64,000 bases of DNA from Kiloniellaceae bacterium (lineage in GTDB: Bacteria; Pseudomonadota; Alphaproteobacteria; Kiloniellales; J153): assembly GCA_021776175.1 (NCBI GenBank), contig JAJFGJ010000003.1, forward strand, positions 144,233-208,232. Direction: 5' to 3'. Positions within the stretch are counted from its first letter, which is position 1. Every line of letters starts with the position of its first letter. The position numbers and the translations under genes are program-made. The notes under the pieces are model-generated. The model was not told the origin of the DNA. It was given only the letters and a program-made list of their open reading frames with translations, and did no database searches. Below are positions 4,746 through 57,505 of this stretch, piece after piece.

Positions 4746-4902
4746 CGGGTTGCCGGAGCTATGTTCCGGCCCCTGAGTCGAGCGTTGGCAAACTCCAAAG
4801 AACTGTGTTAAGAGGCGGCGCCCCGCGTGGCCGGGGAATGAAATGGTAAGCCAACGTCCCAATCTAACCCGATAAACGCTGGCCAATCTGAGGACATAAT
4901 CA

Positions 4903-5139
4903 ATGAGCAATGATACTGCCGAGCGCGTTAAGAAAATTGTCGTTGAGCACTTGGGCGTGGACGAGTCCAAGGTCTCGGAAAACGCCAGCTTCATCGATGA
5001 CCTGGGTGCCGATAGCCTCGATACCGTCGAGCTGGTCATGGCGTTCGAGGAAGAATTCGGATGCGAGATTCCAGATGACGCGGCGGAAAAGATCGTGACC
5101 GTCAAGGATGCTGTCGATTTTATTCAACAGCACGCTTAA
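4903..5139 (+). CDS. acpP: Acyl carrier protein
   Basis: The [21 protein letters not shown] motif carries the phosphopantetheine Ser. 78 aa. Confidence 0.97.
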
Positions 5140-31525: not shown

Positions 31526-33196
31526 TTAGAACTGGGCGCTGATCGCGAAGAAGAAGCGCAGATCCCGGTCGCCGGTGGTGTCGACCCGGCGATCCAAGGG
31601 TTTGGCGACCTCGAAACTCGCCAAGGCGTTTCCGGATACGCCTATACGAAGACCGCCGCCGGCGGAGGCCAAGGTCTGGCTCCGCGAACCGCTCGCTGTA
31701 TTTCGGTTGCGCAAGGCGCCGCCGTCGACAAAACCATAGGCTTCGTAGCTGGTCACGACTTCGCTGTCCCGGTCCTGGCCAAAGCGTAGCTCGGCGGAGC
31801 CGGCCACACCGTTCTCGCCCGAGATCTCGCCGAAATCGTAACCGCGGCCGAATTGCGACCCGCCTATGAGGAATTCTTCCGACGACAGCAAAGGATCCAA
31901 GGACGCTTGCGCCTGGCCCCCCAGCCGCAGGGAGACGGGGCCCCAGATTTTCTGCAACCTGATGATATCCAGCCGGAACTTGGTGAAGCTCCCCTCGCCG
32001 TCCGGGCGCGACAGGTTTATGTCGCCGGCGTTAGAGGCATTCAGGATGTCCAAGCCCTGGCTGACCTCAAGGGCGGCGTAGCTCGTGCCGCCCAGATCGT
32101 CTTGCAGCGAATAGTCCACCTGCACGCGCGCCACGCTAAGCCGGTCGTCGATGGTAGAGATGGCGAAGCGGTCTTCGCTGACACCGCGGACCTCGAAAGA
32201 GACTTGCAGGTTCATAGCCTGGCGGCGTGAGAGGAGTATGGGATGCCGCAGTTCGGTCTTGGCGGTGTAGCTGCGCGATTCGGTTTCTTCCTGGGCCAGA
32301 CCTTTGCCGGCGTCGATGGCGCTGGCGGCCAGGCTGACGCCGAGCACGGCGCCGCCTGTGCCCAGTGGCTGTTCGTAGCCGAGTTGGCCATAGACGAGTT
32401 CCGATGTCTGGTCCGGCACGGTGGCGATGGAGACCTGGACTCTCTCGCCCAGGCCCATGACCGAGTTGAACGCCACGCTGGTCCAGCCCTGTAGCCGGCC
32501 GACCTCCGGGGTGCCCCGGTTGTCCAGGTTCGCGCCGCCGGAAACGGCGCTATGCGTGGTGGGGATCACGAGCGCATACGCGCCATCGTCATCCACTTTC
32601 GCGACCTGGACATCGCCCACCGCCATGCCGGGCAGATCATTTATCACGAGCAGACCGCGTTCGACGGTGCTTAACCGAGCCGGCCGCTCGCGCGTGAAAT
32701 CGCCACGATATTCGCCCAGAAGGCCATCTTGTGCCGAGTCGCCCCGAAACCTGACCTCGGAAAGATATCCTTCGACAACGCGCACCCGAAGAACGCCGCC
32801 TTGAACTTCCTGCGGCGGAACAACGGCATGGGAGAGAAAATATCCGGCGGTGTTGTACTTGGCCGTGATGCGGAGCGCGATCTCCGCCAGATCGGCCGGT
32901 CCGACTTCGCGGGCCAGAAACTCGGCGTAAAGCGAACCAAACTCAGCCGCGTCGAATACGCTCGCGCCTTGAATACTAACCGCGGCCAGCACAAAAGAGA
33001 TTTCGTCCCCGGTCTCAACCAGTGGCGCCGCCGTCGGTTCCTGGAGTTTCGGCTGCGCCTTGGGGAGCGGTGTGGGGCGCAGTTGCTCTATGCGCCGCTC
33101 GATCTGGCCCGGATCCGCTTCCTGGGCAAGAGACTCTTGCGCCAAGAATCCCCATAGGGCGCATAGCGCCATGGCTGACAAAAACGGATTCCGCAC
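31526..33196 (-). CDS. ShlB/FhaC/HecB-type (TpsB) outer-membrane secretion/activation barrel
   Basis: Signal peptide MRNPFLSAMALCALWGFLAQESLAQE. POTRA-like FVLAAVSIQGASVF...ITAKYNTAGYFLSHAVVPPQEVQGGVLRVRVVEGYL. Also ANLDNRGTPEVG, and a beta-barrel C-terminus ending in F. Confidence 0.85.
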   Translation of the reverse strand: MRNPFLSAMALCALWGFLAQESLAQEADPGQIERRIEQLRPTPLPKAQPKLQEPTAAPLVETGDEISFVLAAVSIQGASVFDAAEFGSLYAEFLAREVGPADLAEIALRITAKYNTAGYFLSHAVVPPQEVQGGVLRVRVVEGYLSEVRFRGDSAQDGLLGEYRGDFTRERPARLSTVERGLLVINDLPGMAVGDVQVAKVDDDGAYALVIPTTHSAVSGGANLDNRGTPEVGRLQGWTSVAFNSVMGLGERVQVSIATVPDQTSELVYGQLGYEQPLGTGGAVLGVSLAASAIDAGKGLAQEETESRSYTAKTELRHPILLSRRQAMNLQVSFEVRGVSEDRFAISTIDDRLSVARVQVDYSLQDDLGGTSYAALEVSQGLDILNASNAGDINLSRPDGEGSFTKFRLDIIRLQKIWGPVSLRLGGQAQASLDPLLSSEEFLIGGSQFGRGYDFGEISGENGVAGSAELRFGQDRDSEVVTSYEAYGFVDGGALRNRNTASGSRSQTLASAGGGLRIGVSGNALASFEVAKPLDRRVDTTGDRDLRFFFAISAQF

Positions 33197-33371
33197 GGCA
33201 AACCCTCTCTTAACTCCCTGTCTTATAAATCAAGAATTCAATTAAAAATATACATAAATCTATTACTTAACAATACTTTGGTCTTGATTTTCATCTTCGG
33301 GTTATGTTACTTTCTGTTTACAAGAATTACTCAAGTTTTATCTATTTATCAAAATACTTCGTGAGGAAATC

Positions 33372-34541
33372 ATGACTCAACTCAAACGAATCTTTCACAC
33401 GACGGCTTTGGCGGCTTTCGCCGCCATGTTGGCCGGCCTGTTGTCCGGGGAAGCACGCGCCGGACAAGAAAGTTCGTGGACCTTGGAGAGCCGGTCCGGT
33501 CAAGTGAACTTGGTGAAAACCGGCATGGTCCCGATCTCTCTCTCGACAGGCGACGTTTTCGCGGACGGCGATTGGATCGAAACGGGCCCGGACGGCCGGG
33601 CCATGTTGAAGCGTGGGGAAGAGACGATTGTTGTCGCGCCCAACAGCCGAATCGGGTTGCCTAAAAGTAACGATGGGCCGTATGCCACGCGCATCTTGCA
33701 AACCCTCGGCACGATCCTGCTCACGGTGGAAAAAAAGGCCGCGCAGCATTTCGAGATCGAGACGCCTTACCTTACCGCCGTTGTGAAGGGCACGACCTTT
33801 ACCGTCGGTATCCAGGACGGCCGCGCGGTGGTTCATGTCGTGGAGGGCTTGGTTGAGGTCAATAACCTGTCCAGCGGCCGCAGCAGCCTGATCCGTCCCG
33901 GACAGACTGGATCCGTCATTCGTGGCGGCAGCGGCAATATCGAGATCGATGTTGGCGGCGCAAACGGCACGCCAGCCAGTGCGGCGGCCACGCAGGCACC
34001 GGGCGCGAGTCAGGCGACGGCCCCAGTCGCGAGCCAGGCCTCGCCGGTCGCCGTCGCGGCGGTATCGAATGGCAAGTCGCGCAAGGTTAGAATCGCGCGG
34101 GCTCTTGGCCCCACGACCCTCGACCTGAGCAAGTCGACCAAGGGCTTGGTGCGTGCCGCCCAAGGGGGGCAAGGCAAGGCTCTGGGTAAGGGGCATTTGG
34201 CCGGCAAGCAAGCCACCGCCTCGGATGTTCGAAGCAACGGTCTAGCTTTAGGCAAGACCGCCGCCGCCTCGGGTGCCCGGGGCAGCGCCGGGAACAACGG
34301 CCTCGCTTTAGGCAAGACCGCCGCCGCCTCTAGAGATCTAAGCAGCGCCGGGAACAACGGCCTCGCTTTAGGCAAGACCGCCGCCGCCTCTAGGGCTCTG
34401 AGAAGCGCCGGGAACAACGGCCTAGCGCATGGCAACAGCGCAATCGCCAAACTGCAGGCCTCCGTGGATCATGGCCACGGTGCGGGCGACAACCCGCGCG
34501 CCAATCCGGTTAAAGGCCATGGCAATGGCAATAGTAACTAA
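33372..34541 (+). CDS. Secreted FecR-domain protein with C-terminal Ala/Gly-rich 20-aa tandem repeats
   Basis: Signal peptide ...LLSGEARAGQ. FecR-type core GDWIETGPDGRAMLKRGEETIVVAPNSRIGL...FEIETPYLTAVVKGTTFTV...VHVVEGLVEV. Repeats follow the pattern NNGLALGKTAAASxxLxSAG. Confidence 0.8.
   Translation: MTQLKRIFHTTALAAFAAMLAGLLSGEARAGQESSWTLESRSGQVNLVKTGMVPISLSTGDVFADGDWIETGPDGRAMLKRGEETIVVAPNSRIGLPKSNDGPYATRILQTLGTILLTVEKKAAQHFEIETPYLTAVVKGTTFTVGIQDGRAVVHVVEGLVEVNNLSSGRSSLIRPGQTGSVIRGGSGNIEIDVGGANGTPASAAATQAPGASQATAPVASQASPVAVAAVSNGKSRKVRIARALGPTTLDLSKSTKGLVRAAQGGQGKALGKGHLAGKQATASDVRSNGLALGKTAAASGARGSAGNNGLALGKTAAASRDLSSAGNNGLALGKTAAASRALRSAGNNGLAHGNSAIAKLQASVDHGHGAGDNPRANPVKGHGNGNSN
34235..34435 (+). 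repeat. 60-bp tandem repeat, about 3.3 copies, in frame within the FecR-domain gene
   Basis: Units at 34235-34294, 34295-34354 and 34355-34414, plus a partial fourth. Units 2 and 3 differ at only about 5 positions. Confidence 0.9.
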
Positions 34542-34956: not shown

Positions 34957-37230
34957 ATGAGAATTATGTCCAGAGTGTCGGCCCGATGGATTGGCGCCTT
35001 GGCCATCCTCACCATGATCGCGGTGCTGGATGTCGCCGGGATTCTGGGGCCGATCGACCGGGCCTTGATGGACACCCGTTTCCGGGTCCTGGACCGGCCG
35101 GCCAGCGGCGATATCGTCATCGTCCAGATCGATCCCTACAGCTTGCGAGAGCTCGACGTATGGCCTTGGCCGCGGCGGTACCACGCCGACTTGATCGATA
35201 AGCTGGTCGCGGCGGACGTTCGTGAGATCGCTATAGACATCGATCTCAGCGCGCGCAGCACCGAGGCTGACGACCTGGCCTTGGCGGCCGCTCTGACGCG
35301 GGCACACAACCGGATCGTCTTGCCGGCGTTTCGCCAGACGGCGGCGCCCGAGGCCAGGGGCAGCCGTATATTCGACACTTTGCCGCGGCCCGAATTCAGT
35401 GAACATGCCCAGGTCGGCAGCATCAACGTTTCACCCGCTCCGGATGGTCTGATTCGGCGCATGTCGGGGGTGCATAGTGTGGGTCCTCGGCCCTTACCTG
35501 CGCTCTTCGCGCTGCTGGCCGGGCCAGCGGCCATCAACGATACCCCCTTCTACATAGATTACGGTATCGATCCGAATACGATCCCGCGAATTTCCTATGT
35601 CGATGTCCTGCGCGGAAATTTCGCCGCCGGGCAACTGGCGGGCAAGACGGTGATTGTCGGCACCACGGCGGCTGAGCTGGGCGATACGCTGCCGGTGCCC
35701 GTATACCGCTCCATGGCCGGGCCGGCGATCCAGGCGTTGGCTTTCGAGTCCGTCCGCCAAGGGCGCGCCATTCAAACCTTCGGCTCCGCTCTCTCGATAC
35801 CTGTCAGCGCCCTTGTGGTGGTTCTCTTTACGATACTGTTCGCGAGGCGGCGTTGGCGCTTGGCGGTATTTTTCTGCTTTACCGCCATGTTCGGAATCGA
35901 AGCGCTCGCCATTGCCGTCCAGGCGATCGCCCCGATTGCTTTGACCACGGCGCCATGGCTGATCGCGGCGCCCTTGTCACTTCTGTTCGCGCTATCGGGA
36001 CAGATCGAAACCCAGGCCCGCCAGATTCTCGAGCAACGAGAGACGATCGCCACGCGCCGCGCCTTGATGGACAGCATGGTCGAGAACAGTTTCGACGGCA
36101 TCGTCATCGCCGACCATGGCGGCAGGATACAGGTGATGAACAAGGCCGCCGAAGCGATCCTGCGATGCTCCGCGGGCGAGGCGATCGGTTTGTCGATCGA
36201 TAAAATCCTGCCTGACGCCGAGGAACTGGCAGCGAAATTCCTGCCCTCTGGGGATGCCGAAACCGGCCAAGACGGCGACGCTAGGATTCCGCGCGAATGC
36301 ACCATGGAACGGCGCGGCGGGGACCGCGTGGCTATTGAATTAACTGTTGGCGCGGTCGATCTGGCGCCGGTTAAGCTTGGCCGGCGGGAGGTCGTGCCCG
36401 AGCGGGTTTACCGCACCCTGACGTTCCGCGACATCTCCGAACGTAAAGCCACCCAGGCCGCCCAGCAACTCGCGGTTAAAGAGGCATTGGCGGCCAACCG
36501 TGCCAAGACAGAGTTTCTGGCCAATATGAGCCACGAACTGCGCACGCCCCTAAACGCCATCATTGGGTTCTCGGATACGATCCGCTGCGAGGTTTTCGGT
36601 CCGGTCAACCCACCGCGTTACGGCCAATACATAGACGATATCCACGACAGCGGTACCCACCTATTGCAAATCATTAGCGATATTCTCGATGTTTCGCGCA
36701 TCGAGCTCGGCCAATTCGAAATTGAGGAGCAAGAGTTCGACCCGGCCGAGGCCTTGGCGAGCTGTGCCAAGATCGCGGCCGGATGGCCTGGCATCGGCGA
36801 GCGGCGCGATTACTCGGTCGAGCTTCCGGCCGGTTTGCCCTTCGTTAGGGGCGATGAAAGAGTCATCAAGCAGGTTGTGATAAATCTGCTGTCGAACGCC
36901 TTCAAATACAGCCGCGACGGCGACCGGATCGTGCTTTCCGCCAAGCTGGAAGAGCAAGGAACCCTGGCGATCGTCGTCAAGGACACGGGAATTGGGATCG
37001 CGCCACAAAACATGCCCGACCTGACGACGGCTTTCTACCAAGTGGAAGGGGCCTTCGCGCGCGAAGGCGAGGGCGTCGGCCTCGGCCTGTTCCTGTGCTC
37101 CAGCTATGTCAAGCTGCACGGTGGCGAATTCTCGATCGACAGCGAGTTGGATGCCGGTACCACGGTGACGGTACGCTTGCCGGCGGAACGGCTTAGCCTG
37201 TCTTCATCCGGTGCCGCGGTGAGCGCCTGA
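34957..37230 (+). CDS. CHASE2-domain sensor histidine kinase (CHASE2-3TM-PAS-HisKA-HATPase; no receiver domain)
   Basis: N-terminal TM, then a ~270-aa periplasmic region with CHASE2-like motifs (IVIVQIDPYSL...WPWPRRYHADLIDKL, VIVGTTAAELGD). Three TM segments follow, then a PAS segment, the H-box [23 protein letters not shown], and DTGIGI/GVGLGL. Confidence 0.85.
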   Translation: MRIMSRVSARWIGALAILTMIAVLDVAGILGPIDRALMDTRFRVLDRPASGDIVIVQIDPYSLRELDVWPWPRRYHADLIDKLVAADVREIAIDIDLSARSTEADDLALAAALTRAHNRIVLPAFRQTAAPEARGSRIFDTLPRPEFSEHAQVGSINVSPAPDGLIRRMSGVHSVGPRPLPALFALLAGPAAINDTPFYIDYGIDPNTIPRISYVDVLRGNFAAGQLAGKTVIVGTTAAELGDTLPVPVYRSMAGPAIQALAFESVRQGRAIQTFGSALSIPVSALVVVLFTILFARRRWRLAVFFCFTAMFGIEALAIAVQAIAPIALTTAPWLIAAPLSLLFALSGQIETQARQILEQRETIATRRALMDSMVENSFDGIVIADHGGRIQVMNKAAEAILRCSAGEAIGLSIDKILPDAEELAAKFLPSGDAETGQDGDARIPRECTMERRGGDRVAIELTVGAVDLAPVKLGRREVVPERVYRTLTFRDISERKATQAAQQLAVKEALAANRAKTEFLANMSHELRTPLNAIIGFSDTIRCEVFGPVNPPRYGQYIDDIHDSGTHLLQIISDILDVSRIELGQFEIEEQEFDPAEALASCAKIAAGWPGIGERRDYSVELPAGLPFVRGDERVIKQVVINLLSNAFKYSRDGDRIVLSAKLEEQGTLAIVVKDTGIGIAPQNMPDLTTAFYQVEGAFAREGEGVGLGLFLCSSYVKLHGGEFSIDSELDAGTTVTVRLPAERLSLSSSGAAVSA

Positions 37231-51608: not shown

Positions 51609-52358
51609 TCATAGAAAGGCTCTGGCGGCGATATAAAGCCCCAATACGAACAGGAAGCAAAAGAACACCTTGCGGAACGTGGCTTCGGGCAGACGGCGGC
51701 GAATACGTTGCCCCGCGGCCATGCCAAGAGTGGCCGGAACGACCGCCGCGGCCGACAAGGCGCCGAGTTCGCGGGGCAGCAAGCCGTGATTCGACAAGGA
51801 AATCCCCAGTGCCAGGGTTAGGGCCACGAATACCACGCCCATGGCCTGAACCAGGGTATCGCGTGCCAACCCCAAGGCTTGAAGATACAAGACTCCGGGG
51901 ACCACAAACGATCCGGTCAGGCCGGTAATCGCCCCCCCGGTAAGCCCGATGGCGGGGGACAGCCAGGATTCGTGCCGGCCGGGCGGGCGTACCTGCGGCC
52001 TGGCCAGGCTGTAGCCCGTGTAGACGCATAGCAGCACGCCGAGCAGGCCAGCCACGAGCGCGGCGTCGGCCCGGGCCAAGAGGGCGCTTCCGAACCAGGT
52101 TCCCATGCACGCGGCGGCTATCAGGCTCCATAACCGCCGCACGATGGCCTTCAACTCGCTTCCGCTCAGGGCCTGCCACAAATTAGCGGCAAGCGATGGC
52201 ACTATCATTAAAGCGATCGCCTGCTTCACATCCATGGCCGCGGTCAGAAGGGCAAGTGAGACTGTCGGCAAACCCAAGCCGATGACACCCTTTATCAGGC
52301 CAGCGGCCAAGAATGCCGCCCCGGTCAGGGCCACAACTTCAAGAGGTATGTTTGACAT
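51609..52358 (-). CDS. TauE/SafE-family sulfite/anion exporter
   Basis: Polytopic membrane protein with GLIKGVIGLGLP and GGAITGLTG motifs. The start at MSNIPLE (52358) is preferred. Confidence 0.88.
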   Translation of the reverse strand: MSNIPLEVVALTGAAFLAAGLIKGVIGLGLPTVSLALLTAAMDVKQAIALMIVPSLAANLWQALSGSELKAIVRRLWSLIAAACMGTWFGSALLARADAALVAGLLGVLLCVYTGYSLARPQVRPPGRHESWLSPAIGLTGGAITGLTGSFVVPGVLYLQALGLARDTLVQAMGVVFVALTLALGISLSNHGLLPRELGALSAAAVVPATLGMAAGQRIRRRLPEATFRKVFFCFLFVLGLYIAARAFL

Positions 52359-52597
52359 GGGTCTCCGGGCGGCGGGGGTCTCTTGGATACAGGCGTCACC
52401 CAGGCATAACACAGAATGAGCATTGCCGCCGAGCCATGGTACCTGGGCCGGCGCATGGCGGGGGTCATATTCGGGATTTTGCCAAGGGCCGCATTAACGA
52501 TCTATTTCCCGTATTTCGCCAAGATGAGCGGCGCGCCGCCGGGCGCTGGGAATATGAGTATTGGGCCGAAGCCAAGGTCGCCGGTATCGAGGACGCC

Positions 52598-54610
52598 ATG
52601 ACTAAACAATCGAGCGACCCGGGAACAGCTCCGACCCTGGCCGGGCGCTACCTGATTCACCCCGACAAACCCTTGCCGGCCCGCGATCACGCGGCTGCAT
52701 TCGCTGTCGAAGCCACGGATAAGCGCGCCCCCGCACGGGGTCTGATCGCCATGGTTTGCCGGCCGGGACTGGTTCCGCGTCTCGATATCATTCCGCAGTT
52801 GTCGCGCCTGATGCGGCTGCCCATGATTACGCCGATCGAATCCGGCCCGGTCGTCTGGCCGGAATCGGGCGGCCGCCGCTTCGTTGTTCTGTTCGAGCAC
52901 TCATTGGACCGGGCGTTGGCCGGAAATCTAGGCACGGCATTCGAGGCGCTGCGCGGAGATCAGATAATTTATCATGTCGTTAAACCGATTCTCCCGGCCC
53001 TCAAGGAACTGAGCGGACGATCGATCAAGCACCGGGCGATTCGCGCGGACAATGTCTTTTATAGCGACAGTACTTGTCAGAGCACCGTGCTCGGCGAATG
53101 CGTGAGTGGCCCAACGGGTATGTCGCAGCCTAAGCTTTACGAACCGATCGACCTCGCGATGGCCAACGATTCCGGCCGGGGTCAAGGGACGCTCGCCGAT
53201 GACATGTATGCCATGGGCATCATGATCGCGGTCCTGTTGAACGGCGGCAATCCAACCGAAGGTATGAGCGATGAAGAAATCGTCGCCGATAAAATCAGGC
53301 ATGGCAGTTACTCAGCCGTGACTAAGAATTTAAATATATCGCTGCGCATGATAGAACCCTTGCGCGGCCTCCTTTGCGACGATCCATCCGACCGCTGGAC
53401 TATCGACGAATTGGAATTGTGGGCCAGCGGGCGTCAGCTTAGTCCCAAGCAACCCATGTTGCCGGCCAAGGCGAGCCGCGCCATTGTCTTCGGTGAAACC
53501 GAGCACATGACAAGGCCGGGCCTGTCCTACGCCATGGGATGCCGTTGGGAGCAGGCGGCAAAGCTCGTGACCAGCGGTGAACTGGCGAATTGGTTGCGGC
53601 GGTCTTTCGGCGACGAAGATAGCGCGGATGCGATCGATGACCTGATCGGCAGTACAGGCGAGGGGAAGAAAGCCGAGGATCGGTTGATCTCCAGCGCCTT
53701 AATGGTGCTTGAGCCAAATCATCCGTTACGTTACCGGCAGATATCGGCCCGGATTGATGGTCTCGCGGCCACGCTTGCCATCAATTACCGAGACGAGGAA
53801 TTCCGAAACACCTTCATCGAGATGATGCAGGGCAACCTGCCCCAAATCTATTTGAAATCCTCAGGCGGGGACGGGCGGTCCGAGCGTGCCGTCCTGACTA
53901 AAACATTCGACATGTTCTCCTACTTCCTAGCCCGTCAGCAGCCCGGAAATGGCCTGGAGCGAGCCCTCTACGAAGGAAATCGCGGATGGCCGTGCCAGAG
54001 TCCCCTCATCGCCGACGATTACGTGTGCGAACTGGTTGATCTATTGCCGGTGCTTGAGGGCAGGGCGCGGCAGGCCTCGGCCAACGAGCAGCTCATCGAC
54101 CGCCACCTCGCGGGGTTTTGCGCGGCGCGATCGAAAACACTTGCCGAGTGCGTTCCGAAATTTCTCTCGCCAACAGTCGACGAGGTCAAAGAACGTTTGG
54201 GAGCTCTATCCGTCTATGCCGAGGTGCATCGGATATCCGGGCCGTCGGAACGCTATCCGGCTTTGACGGCGTTGCTCGCCGCCATGGTGGCACCGGTCTA
54301 CGAAAGTTATCGCAATCGGGCGCTGCGCGAGCAAAAGCGCAAGGCTGTCGAACGGATTGGCGGTAAGGGCAACCTGACGGAGTTGTCCATGGCGCTCAAC
54401 GATGCGTCGGCAAGGAGAGCCGATGCCGATGGCTTTGCCGACGCGCGCAAGGAATACGGGCGCTTGGAAAATAATATAAACTGGTTGACCGGGGGCGGCC
54501 TCTCGGCGCCGGGTCACGTGCAGGGAAAAGGCCGGCAGGCCGCGACGTTTTTGTCCGCCATGATCTCCAGCATCGCCGTGCTGGCCCTGTCGATCATTTT
54601 CGTTACTTGA
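52598..54610 (+). CDS. Tail-anchored Hanks-type kinase-like protein with degenerate catalytic motifs (predicted pseudokinase) plus a ~370-aa helical domain
   Basis: C-lobe pattern HRAIRADNVFY ... VLGECVSG ... LYEPID ... DMYAMGIMIAVLLNG ... LLCDDPSDRWTIDEL. The N-lobe has IAMV in place of VAIK and no Gly-rich loop. A single C-terminal TM reads AATFLSAMISSIAVLALSIIFVT. The ATG at 52598 follows a gagga SD. The upstream part of the ORF overlaps the tauE gene on the other strand. Confidence 0.7.
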   Translation: MTKQSSDPGTAPTLAGRYLIHPDKPLPARDHAAAFAVEATDKRAPARGLIAMVCRPGLVPRLDIIPQLSRLMRLPMITPIESGPVVWPESGGRRFVVLFEHSLDRALAGNLGTAFEALRGDQIIYHVVKPILPALKELSGRSIKHRAIRADNVFYSDSTCQSTVLGECVSGPTGMSQPKLYEPIDLAMANDSGRGQGTLADDMYAMGIMIAVLLNGGNPTEGMSDEEIVADKIRHGSYSAVTKNLNISLRMIEPLRGLLCDDPSDRWTIDELELWASGRQLSPKQPMLPAKASRAIVFGETEHMTRPGLSYAMGCRWEQAAKLVTSGELANWLRRSFGDEDSADAIDDLIGSTGEGKKAEDRLISSALMVLEPNHPLRYRQISARIDGLAATLAINYRDEEFRNTFIEMMQGNLPQIYLKSSGGDGRSERAVLTKTFDMFSYFLARQQPGNGLERALYEGNRGWPCQSPLIADDYVCELVDLLPVLEGRARQASANEQLIDRHLAGFCAARSKTLAECVPKFLSPTVDEVKERLGALSVYAEVHRISGPSERYPALTALLAAMVAPVYESYRNRALREQKRKAVERIGGKGNLTELSMALNDASARRADADGFADARKEYGRLENNINWLTGGGLSAPGHVQGKGRQAATFLSAMISSIAVLALSIIFVT

Positions 54611-54629
54611 TATAGCAAGAGCCGCAGCC

Positions 54630-55127
54630 ATGCAAAAACAGGTGAGCCAAGAACAAGCACAGGATCAACCGCGCAAGGCGCGCGGCGGGCGGTCGATCGT
54701 GACTGGAATTCTTCTCTTGCCGGTCATCGCGGTTCTTTTTCCCTCCTGCATGGTGCTGCTTGCCGGCATGGTGCCCAGCATTGTCGCCTACATGGTGGAC
54801 CGGACCGGCGGTAAGTACTTGTCCATCACGGTCGCGCTTCTAAATTTCTGCGGAACCTTGCCTGGATTAACGAGGCTGTGGCAGGAGGGTCAGGCCTTTG
54901 ATGCCGGCATGTACATAGCCGCCGATCCGTTTCATTGGTTGGTGTCTTACGGCGCCGCCGCGGGCGGCTGGATTATCTACCTCTCGGTACCGCTCATTCT
55001 GTCTATGTATTACACGAGTATCTCGAAAAATAGGATCGGCGCCTTGAAGCGCAAGCAGGCTCAATTAATCGAGACCTGGGGGCCCGAGGTCGTGCCCGGA
55101 AACATGCAGGATTCGTCCGAAGGATAG
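54630..55127 (+). CDS. Small polytopic membrane protein, unknown function (likely co-transcribed with 52598-54610)
   Basis: 165 aa. A basic N-terminus, then about 4 hydrophobic segments (IVTGILLLPVIAVLF..., MVPSIVAYMV, YLSITVALLNFCG, GWIIYLSVPLILSMYY). Starts 19 nt after the upstream stop. Confidence 0.6.
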   Translation: MQKQVSQEQAQDQPRKARGGRSIVTGILLLPVIAVLFPSCMVLLAGMVPSIVAYMVDRTGGKYLSITVALLNFCGTLPGLTRLWQEGQAFDAGMYIAADPFHWLVSYGAAAGGWIIYLSVPLILSMYYTSISKNRIGALKRKQAQLIETWGPEVVPGNMQDSSEG

Positions 55128-55168
55128 TTCGCGCCCCGGTGGCGGTCTCGATAATCTTATAACCGCCG

Positions 55169-56053
55169 TCAGTCGCCGGCGAGGCGTTGCTCGATCGCCG
55201 CGTTCCGGATTGCTTTTTGAAGTTTTTCGAAGGCGCGCACTTCTATCTGGCGAACCCGCTCGCGGCTGATGCCGTATTCCTGGGAAAGTTCCTCAAGGGT
55301 GGTCGGGTTTTCGCTCAGACGGCGCATCTCGAGTATGTGCCGCTCGCGCTTATTGAGGGATGTCATCGCCGATTGCAGCAGGGCCCGGCGTTGCGTCATC
55401 TCTTCCGACTCGGCCAGCAGTGTTTCCTGGTCCTCCCCCTCGTCGACCAGCCAGTCTTGCCACTCGCCTTCGCCGTCTATGCGCAAGGGCGCGTTGAGCG
55501 AGTGATCCGGCGCCGACAGGCGGCGGTTCATGCTGACCACGTCGGCTTCGGGCACGTTCAGGGCATCGGCGATCTTGGTGACGTGTTCGGGGTGCAGGTC
55601 GCCTTCCTCGATCGCCTTGATCTGCCCCTTCAATTTACGCAGATTGAAGAACAGTTTTTTCTGGGCCGCCGTCGTGCCCATCTTCACCAAGGACCACGAA
55701 TGCAGGATGTATTCCTGTATCGCGGCACGAATCCACCACATGGCATAGGTCGCGAGGCGGAAGCCGCGCTCGGGATCGAAGCGCTTGACCGCCTGCATCA
55801 TGCCGACGTTGCCCTCGGAGATCAGCTCCGCCACCGGCAGGCCATAGCCGCGGTAGCCCATGGCAATCTTGGCGACCAGGCGCAGATGCGAAGTGACAAG
55901 CTTGTGCGCCGAATCCAGGTCCTCATGCTCGCGCCAGGACTTGGCCAGCATGTATTCCTGATCGTACTCAAGCATGGGAAATTTGCGGATATCCTGCAGA
56001 TAGCTGCTCAGGTTCCCCTCGGGAACCATTACCGGCAATTTCCGTGCTGCCAT
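55169..56053 (-). CDS. rpoH: RNA polymerase sigma-32 (heat-shock sigma factor)
   Basis: SYLQDIRKFPMLEYDQEYMLA, and the RpoB-box-like QKKLFFNLRKLK, which is diagnostic of RpoH. The region 4 HTH is TLEELSQEYGISRERVRQIE. The start at 56053 follows a gggagag SD. Confidence 0.93.
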   Translation of the reverse strand: MAARKLPVMVPEGNLSSYLQDIRKFPMLEYDQEYMLAKSWREHEDLDSAHKLVTSHLRLVAKIAMGYRGYGLPVAELISEGNVGMMQAVKRFDPERGFRLATYAMWWIRAAIQEYILHSWSLVKMGTTAAQKKLFFNLRKLKGQIKAIEEGDLHPEHVTKIADALNVPEADVVSMNRRLSAPDHSLNAPLRIDGEGEWQDWLVDEGEDQETLLAESEEMTQRRALLQSAMTSLNKRERHILEMRRLSENPTTLEELSQEYGISRERVRQIEVRAFEKLQKAIRNAAIEQRLAGD

Positions 56054-56177
56054 ACCTAGCTCTCCCTTAAGTCCAGGCGGTTCCACCGCCAGGCTGTAAT
56101 TAAGTGAACGCTGATATACCTATATCAGACCCGTACCCCGTCAACAAGGAAACCCGACTTATTTGGTCATGTTTCCT

Positions 56178-57223: not shown

Positions 57224-57505
57224 ATGCAGGCACTCAAGATCCTCGTGATCGGGATGGGAGTTCTCATTGCGCTCGGCCTGGCGCTGGTTGTCTACGGCTT
57301 TGCCAGAGGTAAATCCGAGGACGTGAAGGGGATCGGCGACGTCGAGCTGAACCTTCCGCCCGGATGCGTTATCGCCGCCGCCGAAGGCCTCGACGGCCGC
57401 CTGATCGTGCGCACGGAGGGACCCATGGAGCGCGGGTGCCAGCAAGTGATTTTGATCGACATGGCGACCGGCGGGATACTAGGGCGGGTTCTTGGTTCCA
57501 ACTAA
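57224..57505 (+). CDS. Small N-terminally anchored protein, unknown function
   Basis: 93 aa. TM segment MQALKILVIGMGVLIALGLALVVYGF followed by a short soluble domain. Divergent from rluD. Confidence 0.5.
   Translation: MQALKILVIGMGVLIALGLALVVYGFARGKSEDVKGIGDVELNLPPGCVIAAAEGLDGRLIVRTEGPMERGCQQVILIDMATGGILGRVLGSN

Follow-up and report, generated by a model that had tools for sequence, protein, structure and literature searches.

A 64-kb stretch of contig JAJFGJ010000003.1 from a Kiloniellaceae bacterium, referred to here in its whole length as the window, carries two adjacent genes that encode a large protein with a degenerate kinase fold and a small integral membrane protein. The N-terminal part of the large protein has the fold of a Hanks-type Ser/Thr kinase from which the catalytic lysine and aspartate have been lost across the whole family, and it is followed by a helical domain that resembles no known structure and by a single hydrophobic segment at the extreme C-terminus. 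We propose, with a probability of roughly 0.55, that the large protein is a non-catalytic, membrane-tethered scaffold or sensor that works in an obligate complex with its four-transmembrane partner and has a housekeeping role. To our knowledge, bacterial pseudokinases are few and almost all of them are uncharacterized. The family found here belongs to a known kind, the membrane-associated bacterial pseudokinases, and adds to it a dead kinase fold joined to a helical domain that lacks both a Pfam family and any likeness to a solved structure, together with a coupled membrane partner. It is large and unannotated: clustering at 50% identity gives at least 1450 groups, members occur in at least 486 species, and the standard kinase models score it below their threshold.

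The features of the pair are as follows, with the coordinates of the large gene including its stop codon.

52598..54610, + strand: large gene, encoding the 670-residue tail-anchored pseudokinase (open reading frame and translation, ribosome-binding site, 310 full-length homologues, confident AlphaFold2 model)
52631..53437, + strand: kinase-fold domain, residues ~12-280 (sub-threshold Pfam match, PDB profile matches, Foldseek, hhalign, residue counts in 299 relatives)
53468..54397, + strand: helical domain of unknown fold, residues ~291-600 (no Pfam or PDB match, 1450 clusters, invariant residues)
54404..54490, + strand: juxtamembrane amphipathic helix, residues 603-631 (DSSP assignment of the model, column counts)
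54536..54607, + strand: C-terminal transmembrane tail anchor, residues ~647-670 (hydropathy, column counts)
54630..55127, + strand: small gene, encoding the 165-residue four-transmembrane partner (open reading frame, homologues, alignment with downstream genes of Pelagibius and others, synteny)

Gene calls

The start codon of the large gene is an ATG at 52598, within a longer open reading frame (52313..54610, + strand), and translation from it gives 670 residues. A GAGGA ribosome-binding site (Shine-Dalgarno sequence) lies 6-7 nt 5′ of this codon, and homologues of 660-680 residues are consistent with a product of that length. An identical protein at NCBI (P0001) is annotated with 724 residues, implying a start somewhere within 52313-52597; because the ribosome-binding site and the homologue lengths favor 52598, the public annotation has probably been over-extended at its N-terminus. 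The small open reading frame begins 19 nt past the stop codon of the large gene, and an rpoH-like open reading frame that contains the RpoH box QKKLFFNLR (55169..56086, − strand) converges on the pair from the other side; the rpoH orthologues at related loci match Sigma70_r2 and Sigma70_r4. GC content is even across the region of the pair.

The original prediction for this DNA, a degenerate kinase-like protein of 670 residues with a 165-residue partner 19 nt downstream and rpoH as neighbor, is borne out by these gene calls, and the motifs on which it was built are all present with the spacing that it gave them: IAMV at residues 50-53, HRAIRADNVFY at 145-155, a gap of eight residues, VLGECVSG at 164-171, LYEPID at 180-185, DMYAMGIMIAVLLNG at 202-216 and LLCDDPSDRWTIDEL at 258-272. 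The large protein has 310 full-length homologues with 41-75% identity, and given these and the 1450 clusters that contain the C-terminal domain, the pseudokinase pattern described below is far more than chance could produce.

A Hanks-type kinase fold

Standard annotation barely detects the kinase domain. The Pfam model Pkinase (PF00069) scores 27.0 bits over residues 200-272 only, short of its gathering threshold of 31.7, and a precomputed PF00069 match is present in only part of the homologues. Profile methods are much clearer: a profile of 28 family members searched against the PDB finds solved kinases over profile positions 93-309, with MAPKAPK3 at an E value of 2e-10, while hhalign comparison of a divergent family alignment with the kinase domain of PknB gives 98.1% probability and an E value of 1e-13 over residues 68-269, and comparison with PKA gives 95.9% probability. 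The full-length AlphaFold2 model built from the family alignment has a predicted local distance difference test score of 87 and a predicted template-modeling score of 0.81. When its N-terminal 280 residues are compared with the PDB by Foldseek, the top matches are all protein kinases, PknB being the first (E value 4e-7, template-modeling score on the target 0.66-0.69) and PknB, ULK1 and WNK3 together spanning E values of ~4e-7 to 1e-6 and scores of 0.66-0.77.

In the model the N-lobe has five strands and a very short αC helix of five residues (65-69), and the C-lobe is helical and normal. The activation segment is short, and in the C-lobe the motifs YEP, DDxYAxG and RW are all preserved. Among 133 distant representatives the C-lobe signature has been kept almost completely, with E182 in 93%, D202 in 99%, G207 in 100% and R266 in 98%, and W267 is also retained. 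Both the bilobal fold and the C-lobe signature by which membership of the Hanks (eukaryotic protein kinase) superfamily is recognized are therefore found, and no ABC1 match was obtained in Pfam or NCBIfam at E≤1 that would point to the UbiB/ABC1 atypical kinases. Predicted structure, Foldseek and the profile and hhalign searches agree that the N-terminal domain has a Hanks-type kinase fold, as had been claimed from the spacing of the motifs.

Loss of the catalytic residues

Residues were counted in 299 sequences: the 133 representatives, which are 25-39% identical, and a further 166 that are closer. No GxGxxG motif is present, so the reported absence of a Gly-rich loop holds, and a Pro-containing segment stands in its stead. 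IAMV occupies the place where VAIK is expected, and the family pattern there is F-A-L-V-C; because the conserved Ala51 corresponds to the alanine of VAIK, the position of the β3 lysine is residue 53. That residue is Val, Ile or Leu and is Lys in none of the 299, nor is residue 54 ever Lys. In the catalytic loop HRAIRADN is found where HRDxKxxN is expected, following the family pattern H(R/G)(A/G)IR, and residue 147, in the position of the HRD aspartate, is Ala, Gly, Ser or Asn in 298 of the sequences and Asp in one. The DFG site has been remodeled to L-G-(E/D)-C.

At least two of the VAIK lysine, the HRD aspartate and the DFG aspartate are thus lost in essentially all 299 sequences. By the standard sequence definition this is a pseudokinase throughout the family, and the features of a catalytically competent Hanks kinase are missing from it. 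Canonical phosphotransfer would be impossible because the Gly-rich loop, the β3 lysine and the HRD aspartate are all lacking, and the loss of these residues makes it most likely that the kinase fold serves as a protein-binding or conformational-switch module. The pseudokinase interpretation is supported overall: the predicted fold is that of a kinase, Lys and Asp have not been retained at shifted positions around β3 or HRD, and the downstream gene is syntenic in relatives, as detailed below. The accompanying statement that every alignable catalytic residue had been replaced is correct for the β3 lysine and the HRD aspartate and too strong for the catalytic-loop asparagine, Asn152, which is kept in 298/299.

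The tail anchor and the four-transmembrane partner

Residues 647-670 form the only true hydrophobic, transmembrane segment of the large protein, with basic residues ahead of it; a second hydrophobic stretch near residues 205-228 is the buried αF helix of the kinase fold. Hydropathy places a C-terminal transmembrane segment in 131 of the 133 representatives, with three residues or fewer beyond it in about 121, and so supports, across the family, the single C-terminal anchor that had been proposed and classes the protein as tail-anchored. The large subunit is accordingly predicted to be cytoplasmic and tethered to the inner membrane by its C-terminal tail. The anchor has a stripe of small residues in a small-xxx-small pattern (G645, A649, S653, A/S657); such a stripe in a transmembrane helix is typical of tight helix packing. 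Just ahead of the anchor, the helix of residues 603-631 has an invariant D609 and A616 and a conserved hydrophobic stripe with 3-4-3-4 spacing, formed by F613, A616, Y620, residue 623, I627 and L630.

The partner has a tight hairpin of two transmembrane segments (residues ~19-57), a third at 64-80 and a fourth at 108-126, followed by an amphipathic C-terminal helix that is predicted to be cytoplasmic and ends in an invariant WG. Basic residues are found at the N-terminus, in the loop between the second and third segments and in the C-terminal helix, and from their distribution both termini are predicted to lie inside. Residues conserved at 90% or above are P38, P49, N72, G75, P78, L83, W84, G113, W114, P121, Q143, L146, W150 and G151; among the conserved features are transmembrane prolines and the motifs NFxGxxP, LW, GW and a terminal QxxLxxxWG. 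No Pfam, NCBIfam or PADLOC family matched the partner, and Pfam scans of seven of its homologues gave no consistent match.

The coupling between the two genes is strict. A homologue of the partner lies directly downstream of the large gene in all 85 related loci that were scored, down to 29% identity, so that the synteny expected of a dedicated partner is found at every one. The gap between the genes has a median of 12 nt and falls within 0-30 nt in 66/85 loci. The partner diverges faster than the large protein, and the two co-diverge, with identities of 29-87% and 32-75%, respectively. Judged by gene order and spacing, they form an operon-like unit.

We suggest that the product of this operon is a complex of the inner membrane that has a housekeeping role and is confined to Rhodospirillales-like Alphaproteobacteria. 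Its large subunit would be wholly cytoplasmic and held by its C-terminal anchor, its kinase fold would act as the protein-binding or switch module described above, and the small four-transmembrane protein would be its obligate membrane partner. The contact surfaces may be the small-residue stripe of the anchor and the membrane-proximal amphipathic helix of each protein. Several points weigh against this proposal. The sole pointer to an interaction between the large and small proteins is the coupling of their genes, and neither has a characterized homologue to which it could be compared. Invariant Cys, Ser, Asp and His residues could make the second domain an enzyme and not a scaffold, and the conservation of Asn152, Arg149, Arg61, Ala51 and an acidic residue 167 in the kinase domain is compatible with residual nucleotide-dependent chemistry. 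The alternatives that follow from these last points are considered in the next two sections.

The helical second domain

The second domain opens with an invariant linker, GRxLSPKQPxLP, and a β-hairpin, and continues for ~300 residues of helices, so that it is almost wholly α-helical in the model. The original prediction had described a helical domain of ~370 residues followed by a coiled-coil-like segment; the helical region is real, and it is shorter than that, extending over residues ~290-600, with the 29-residue amphipathic helix after it. The domain gave no Pfam match in 13 members and no match to the PDB by sequence, and a Foldseek search of the PDB returned nothing significant (best E value 0.8, template-modeling score ≤0.24). 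A profile of the domain finds, at a clustering level of 50% identity, at least 1450 representative clusters, of which 862 have E ≤1e-30. Among the 150 clusters listed, 125 are proteins of 600-782 residues in which the domain starts at about residue 270-405, as it does in the window protein, and the other 25, of 221-571 residues, are probably truncated gene calls on short contigs; in none of the 150 is a different domain found ahead of it.

Residues invariant across the family are W332, P376, G452, R455, Y458, C466, S468, D501, H503 and G591. It is this C-terminal region that has the strictest invariants of the protein, in the motifs G[IL]ERxLY (R455, Y458), PCxSP (C466, S468) and DRH (D501, H503) together with D609, and they are stricter than those of the kinase domain: C466, S468, D501 and D609 are unchanged in 299/299 sequences and H503 is near-invariant (129/133 and 165/166). 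It is likely, from this conservation, that E454, R455, Y458, C466, S468, D501, H503 and D609 mark a site that binds a ligand, a metal or a partner.

A different division of labor could be drawn from the same residues, in which the helical domain is the active part of the protein, either a new enzyme or a sensor of a metal or cofactor built on Cys466, Ser468, Asp501, His503 and Glu454, and the pseudokinase is a regulatory or docking module. This would explain why the strictest invariants are found here and why the invariants that can be assigned in the kinase domain are, with the exceptions of N152 and R61, mostly structural positions of the C-lobe; a domain without known relatives also leaves function unconstrained. 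The domain is almost all α-helical, however, unlike the known folds of Cys-His-Asp hydrolases, the i, i+2 spacing of Asp and His is more in keeping with metal binding than with a catalytic triad, and no enzyme family was matched. We regard this alternative as unlikely. A broader proposal, which we hold to be distinctly unlikely, is that the pair constitutes a previously undescribed, lineage-wide membrane signaling device. Here the helical domain would bind a metal, cofactor or ligand, or perform catalysis, through its Cys, Ser, Asp, His and Glu residues, the dead kinase would be the switch, the partner would supply membrane or periplasmic input, and the whole would govern some core function of Rhodospirillales-like Alphaproteobacteria, homeostasis of the envelope or of proteostasis for example.

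What remains of the kinase active site

Returning to the kinase domain, a further alternative to the scaffold proposal is that it is an atypical, active nucleotide-dependent enzyme that uses migrated or alternative residues, as in WNK, SelO and SidJ. Several positions in its favor are conserved: besides Asn152, the 133 distant representatives keep Ala51 in 90% and Arg149, at the HRDxK position, in 84%, and Arg61, before αC, is conserved at 96%. The register of the DFG site is also ambiguous. The DFG aspartate can be placed at G166, as in the original prediction, at C168 by HMMER, at L165 by hhalign, a register that deletes the DFG and activation loop with a deletion of 8-10 residues, or at E167 from the canonical residue pattern of a hydrophobic, a small and then an acidic residue. 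The earlier description of GEC as the replacement for DFG is therefore right in that no DFG motif is present, and it represents only one of four registers, with a conserved acidic residue alongside. At residue 167, within two residues of the expected DFG place, 96-100% of members have Glu or Asp, so that a metal ligand may survive there and E/D167 may be the true one. A cation or nucleotide may be bound by way of Asn152 and Glu/Asp167.

Against activity, a lysine at or beside the β3 position is lacking in most members, and the substitutions at the HRD aspartate, the Pro-containing segment in place of the Gly-rich loop and the five-residue αC helix of the model all point the same way. The segment from the asparagine to Glu182, the APE-type glutamate, moreover falls 7-10 residues short of its counterpart in PknB or PKA. 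Taken together these make an active kinase-like enzyme quite improbable. A redox-active or metal-binding cysteine pair in the kinase cleft, C54 and C168, was also examined and rejected because the presence of each cysteine is statistically independent of the other, with 68 double-Cys sequences observed and ~65 expected (n=133); C54 itself sits one residue past the Lys position.

Distribution and genomic context

When one genome per species was scanned with two narrow peptide patterns, relatives were found in at least 486 species, and because the patterns are narrow the true number of species is higher. Hosts include Kiloniellaceae, Pelagibius, Denitrobaculum, Kiloniella, Tistlia, Algihabitans, Fodinicurvata, Rhodovibrio, Caenispirillum, Elsteraceae and Dongiaceae, as well as one metagenome-assembled genome (MAG) of Magnetospirillum. 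The range corresponds to the Rhodospirillales-like orders of the Alphaproteobacteria, across which the pair has been inherited vertically. Several hosts are in culture and would be open to genetics (Pelagibius, Kiloniella, Tistlia, Caenispirillum, Rhodovibrio and possibly Magnetospirillum), and with its two genes the pair is a clean system in which to study the role of a kinase fold without catalysis in bacteria.

The ancestral gene order is hisZ-purA-[pair]-rpoH(−)-rluD(−). Among the 69 loci with enough flanking sequence, rpoH lies convergently downstream within the flank in 63, over several orders, and rluD within the flank in 65. In a set of 76 loci, 64 have a same-strand purA upstream, which in 58 of them directly adjoins the pair. 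In the window and its closest relatives tauE stands upstream where purA is otherwise found.

The adjacency to rpoH that had been noted is therefore real, and it raises the question of whether the pair acts from the membrane to regulate RpoH, the heat-shock sigma factor, or proteostasis of the envelope. Its conservation across orders is what such a role would predict. The hint of a functional link is weakened, however, by the similarly strong linkage to purA and by loci where the pair stays beside rluD without an adjacent rpoH, in Caenispirillum salinarum (L075) and at one further locus (L086), both of which suggest that rpoH is simply part of an old core-genome block. Because the genes converge, the pair and rpoH are not co-transcribed, and no sigma-32-type promoter is conserved upstream of the pair in relatives. 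We have accordingly downgraded the specific link with rpoH to deep synteny and consider a regulator of RpoH or of proteostasis very improbable. That the pair is a module of anti-phage defense or of a mobile element, with a kinase-like protein at its center, is effectively refuted, since the weak PADLOC and NCBIfam matches to the MADS kinase Mad6, MkoA and PD-T4-6 are generic fragments of the kinase C-lobe far below their cutoffs (22.9 bits against 460 for Mad6), the position is syntenic and core-genomic with normal GC content and vertical inheritance, and no relatives were found in the viral collection.

Three contigs with titles from outside the Alphaproteobacteria also carry the pair: Halopseudomonas aestusnigri (L050), Comamonadaceae (L071) and Flavobacteriales (L080). 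L050 and L080 have rluD and an alphaproteobacterial-type rpoH, 76-78% identical to that of the window, and L071 has purA upstream and neither rpoH nor rluD within the flank. These MAG contigs are probably alphaproteobacterial ones that were mis-binned and not members of the family in other classes. Some distant members have an N-terminal extension of 40-110 residues with abundant Lys, Ala, Asp, Gly and Pro, apparently disordered, which the window protein does not have; examples are found at L075 (~4845-5000), in Rhodovibrio sodomensis (L031, upstream of 5001) and in the proteins P0274 (782 residues) and P0208 (772 residues).

Comparison with known pseudokinases and kinases

An atlas and a review of bacterial Ser/Thr kinases and pseudokinases, both from 2025, distinguish seven families of pseudokinases, ActPs1, ActPs2, ActPs3, GLW, CP1, DYD and DLHK (bioRxiv 10.1101/2025.01.12.632604; PMC12599244). 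The families of this atlas are described as homologous to PF00069 (bioRxiv 10.1101/2025.01.12.632604), and the present family may have been missed by it because it lies below the PF00069 threshold. By their descriptions, which set it apart, it matches none of the seven. Database names of its members are either “hypothetical protein” or an automatic “serine/threonine protein kinase,” and a search of the literature for pseudokinases in the taxa concerned or for “tail-anchored” ones brought up nothing on the family.

The proteobacterial GLW family, in which GLW replaces HRD and LLLL/W replaces VAIK (PMC12599244; bioRxiv 10.1101/2025.01.12.632604), has a C-terminal transmembrane segment in common with the window family. 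The latter differs in having H-R/G-A/G-I-R and F-A-L-V-C at these places, a comparison made with the description of the GLW motifs. Another parallel is EssB/YukC, the membrane pseudokinase scaffold of the type VIIb secretion system of Firmicutes (PMC12599244). Like the window protein it has a cytoplasmic N-terminal Hanks-type pseudokinase in which all catalytic motifs and the Gly-rich loop are degraded, a short activation loop and one transmembrane segment, and it serves membrane partners as a scaffold without catalytic activity. EssB, however, has a sizeable extracellular domain after the transmembrane segment, whereas the window family has 0-3 residues there, and the window protein has no outside domain because its transmembrane helix is the extreme C-terminus. 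The window protein also has a cytoplasmic helical domain of ~350 residues between the kinase fold and the membrane, and the solved structures nearest to its model are canonical kinases such as PknB. The genetic setting is different again, with type VII secretion genes in Firmicutes on the one hand and, on the other, purA (or tauE), rpoH and rluD with one four-transmembrane partner in Alphaproteobacteria.

The MviN/MurJ-linked ActPs3 proteins of Mycobacterium are likewise membrane-attached, have a shortened activation loop and function in regulation or docking and not in catalysis. There the domain is fused to a polytopic flippase and regulated by PknB and FhaA in Actinobacteria, whereas in the window family the membrane protein has a small gene of its own, the neighborhood lacks FHA and active kinase genes, and the additional domain is unrelated. 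Hanks kinases of the PknB type provide the best structural match to the N-terminal domain and also place a transmembrane segment after the kinase domain. PknB is active, with the K/D/D residues and the Gly-rich loop, and its transmembrane segment leads to extracellular PASTA domains; the window protein has neither the catalytic residues nor an extracellular part. Among eukaryotic pseudokinases, those of the SCYL type are membrane-associated scaffolds with an N-terminal pseudokinase, helical repeats and a C-terminal coiled coil. The overall layout of pseudokinase, large helical domain and terminal amphipathic or coiled-coil helix is shared, and the likeness is architectural only: no similarity of sequence or fold was detected for the helical domain, and SCYL proteins are not tail-anchored.

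The upstream element and other features of the window

One further feature belongs to the pair.

52491..52519, + strand: conserved upstream cis-element CATTAACGATCTATTTCCCGTATTTCGCC (conservation in the intergenic region of close relatives)

The element lies ~80-105 nt before the start codon, and at ~−80 to −130 across loci. Its general form is TTAAC-N6-(C/T)TTTGCC-N9-10-TTAAC/TTAGCT/TAGAT, and it is present in ~60 loci from several families whose flanks have diverged (for example L001, L008, L016, L025, L038, L050 and L081). It could be a promoter combined with a regulator site. A reading of the element as a sigma-32 or sigma-70 promoter was rejected because the spacings do not fit, and the TTGCCA-N17-CTATTT of the window is not conserved in relatives. 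The CtrA box has the form TTAA-N7-TTAAC; the TTAA-N7-TTTGC of the element has the same spacing, and a few loci have the exact half site TTAACCAT. Elsewhere in the window the element and the CtrA box match no more often than chance predicts (7 found, 9 expected), which is uninformative.

On the downstream side the partner gene and the convergent rpoH have their stop codons just 41 nt apart (55128-55168). This spacer contains an imperfect inverted repeat, GGCGGT...ACCGCC, which could be a shared bidirectional terminator; a simple terminator scan made no call there. Beyond rpoH, a small open reading frame (57224-57505, + strand) is divergent from rluD, and an equivalent occurs in all related loci (L001 10919-11215, L002 10746-11054, L086 10895-11293). 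These encode 93-132 residues with an N-terminal transmembrane segment and gave one faint match to DUF6476, and they represent a further uncharacterized member of the conserved block.

The best of the other matches in the window are in an AT-rich island between ShlB-type transporter and FecR-like genes. This divergent intergenic region (33197-33372) is unusually AT-rich for a window that is otherwise ~62% GC, and is flanked by a gene for a two-partner-secretion transporter of the ShlB/FhaC type (31526-33196, − strand) and one for a FecR-domain protein (33372-34541, + strand). A gene for a CHASE2-PAS histidine kinase (34957-37230) follows the FecR-domain gene, and the region may be an acquired island.

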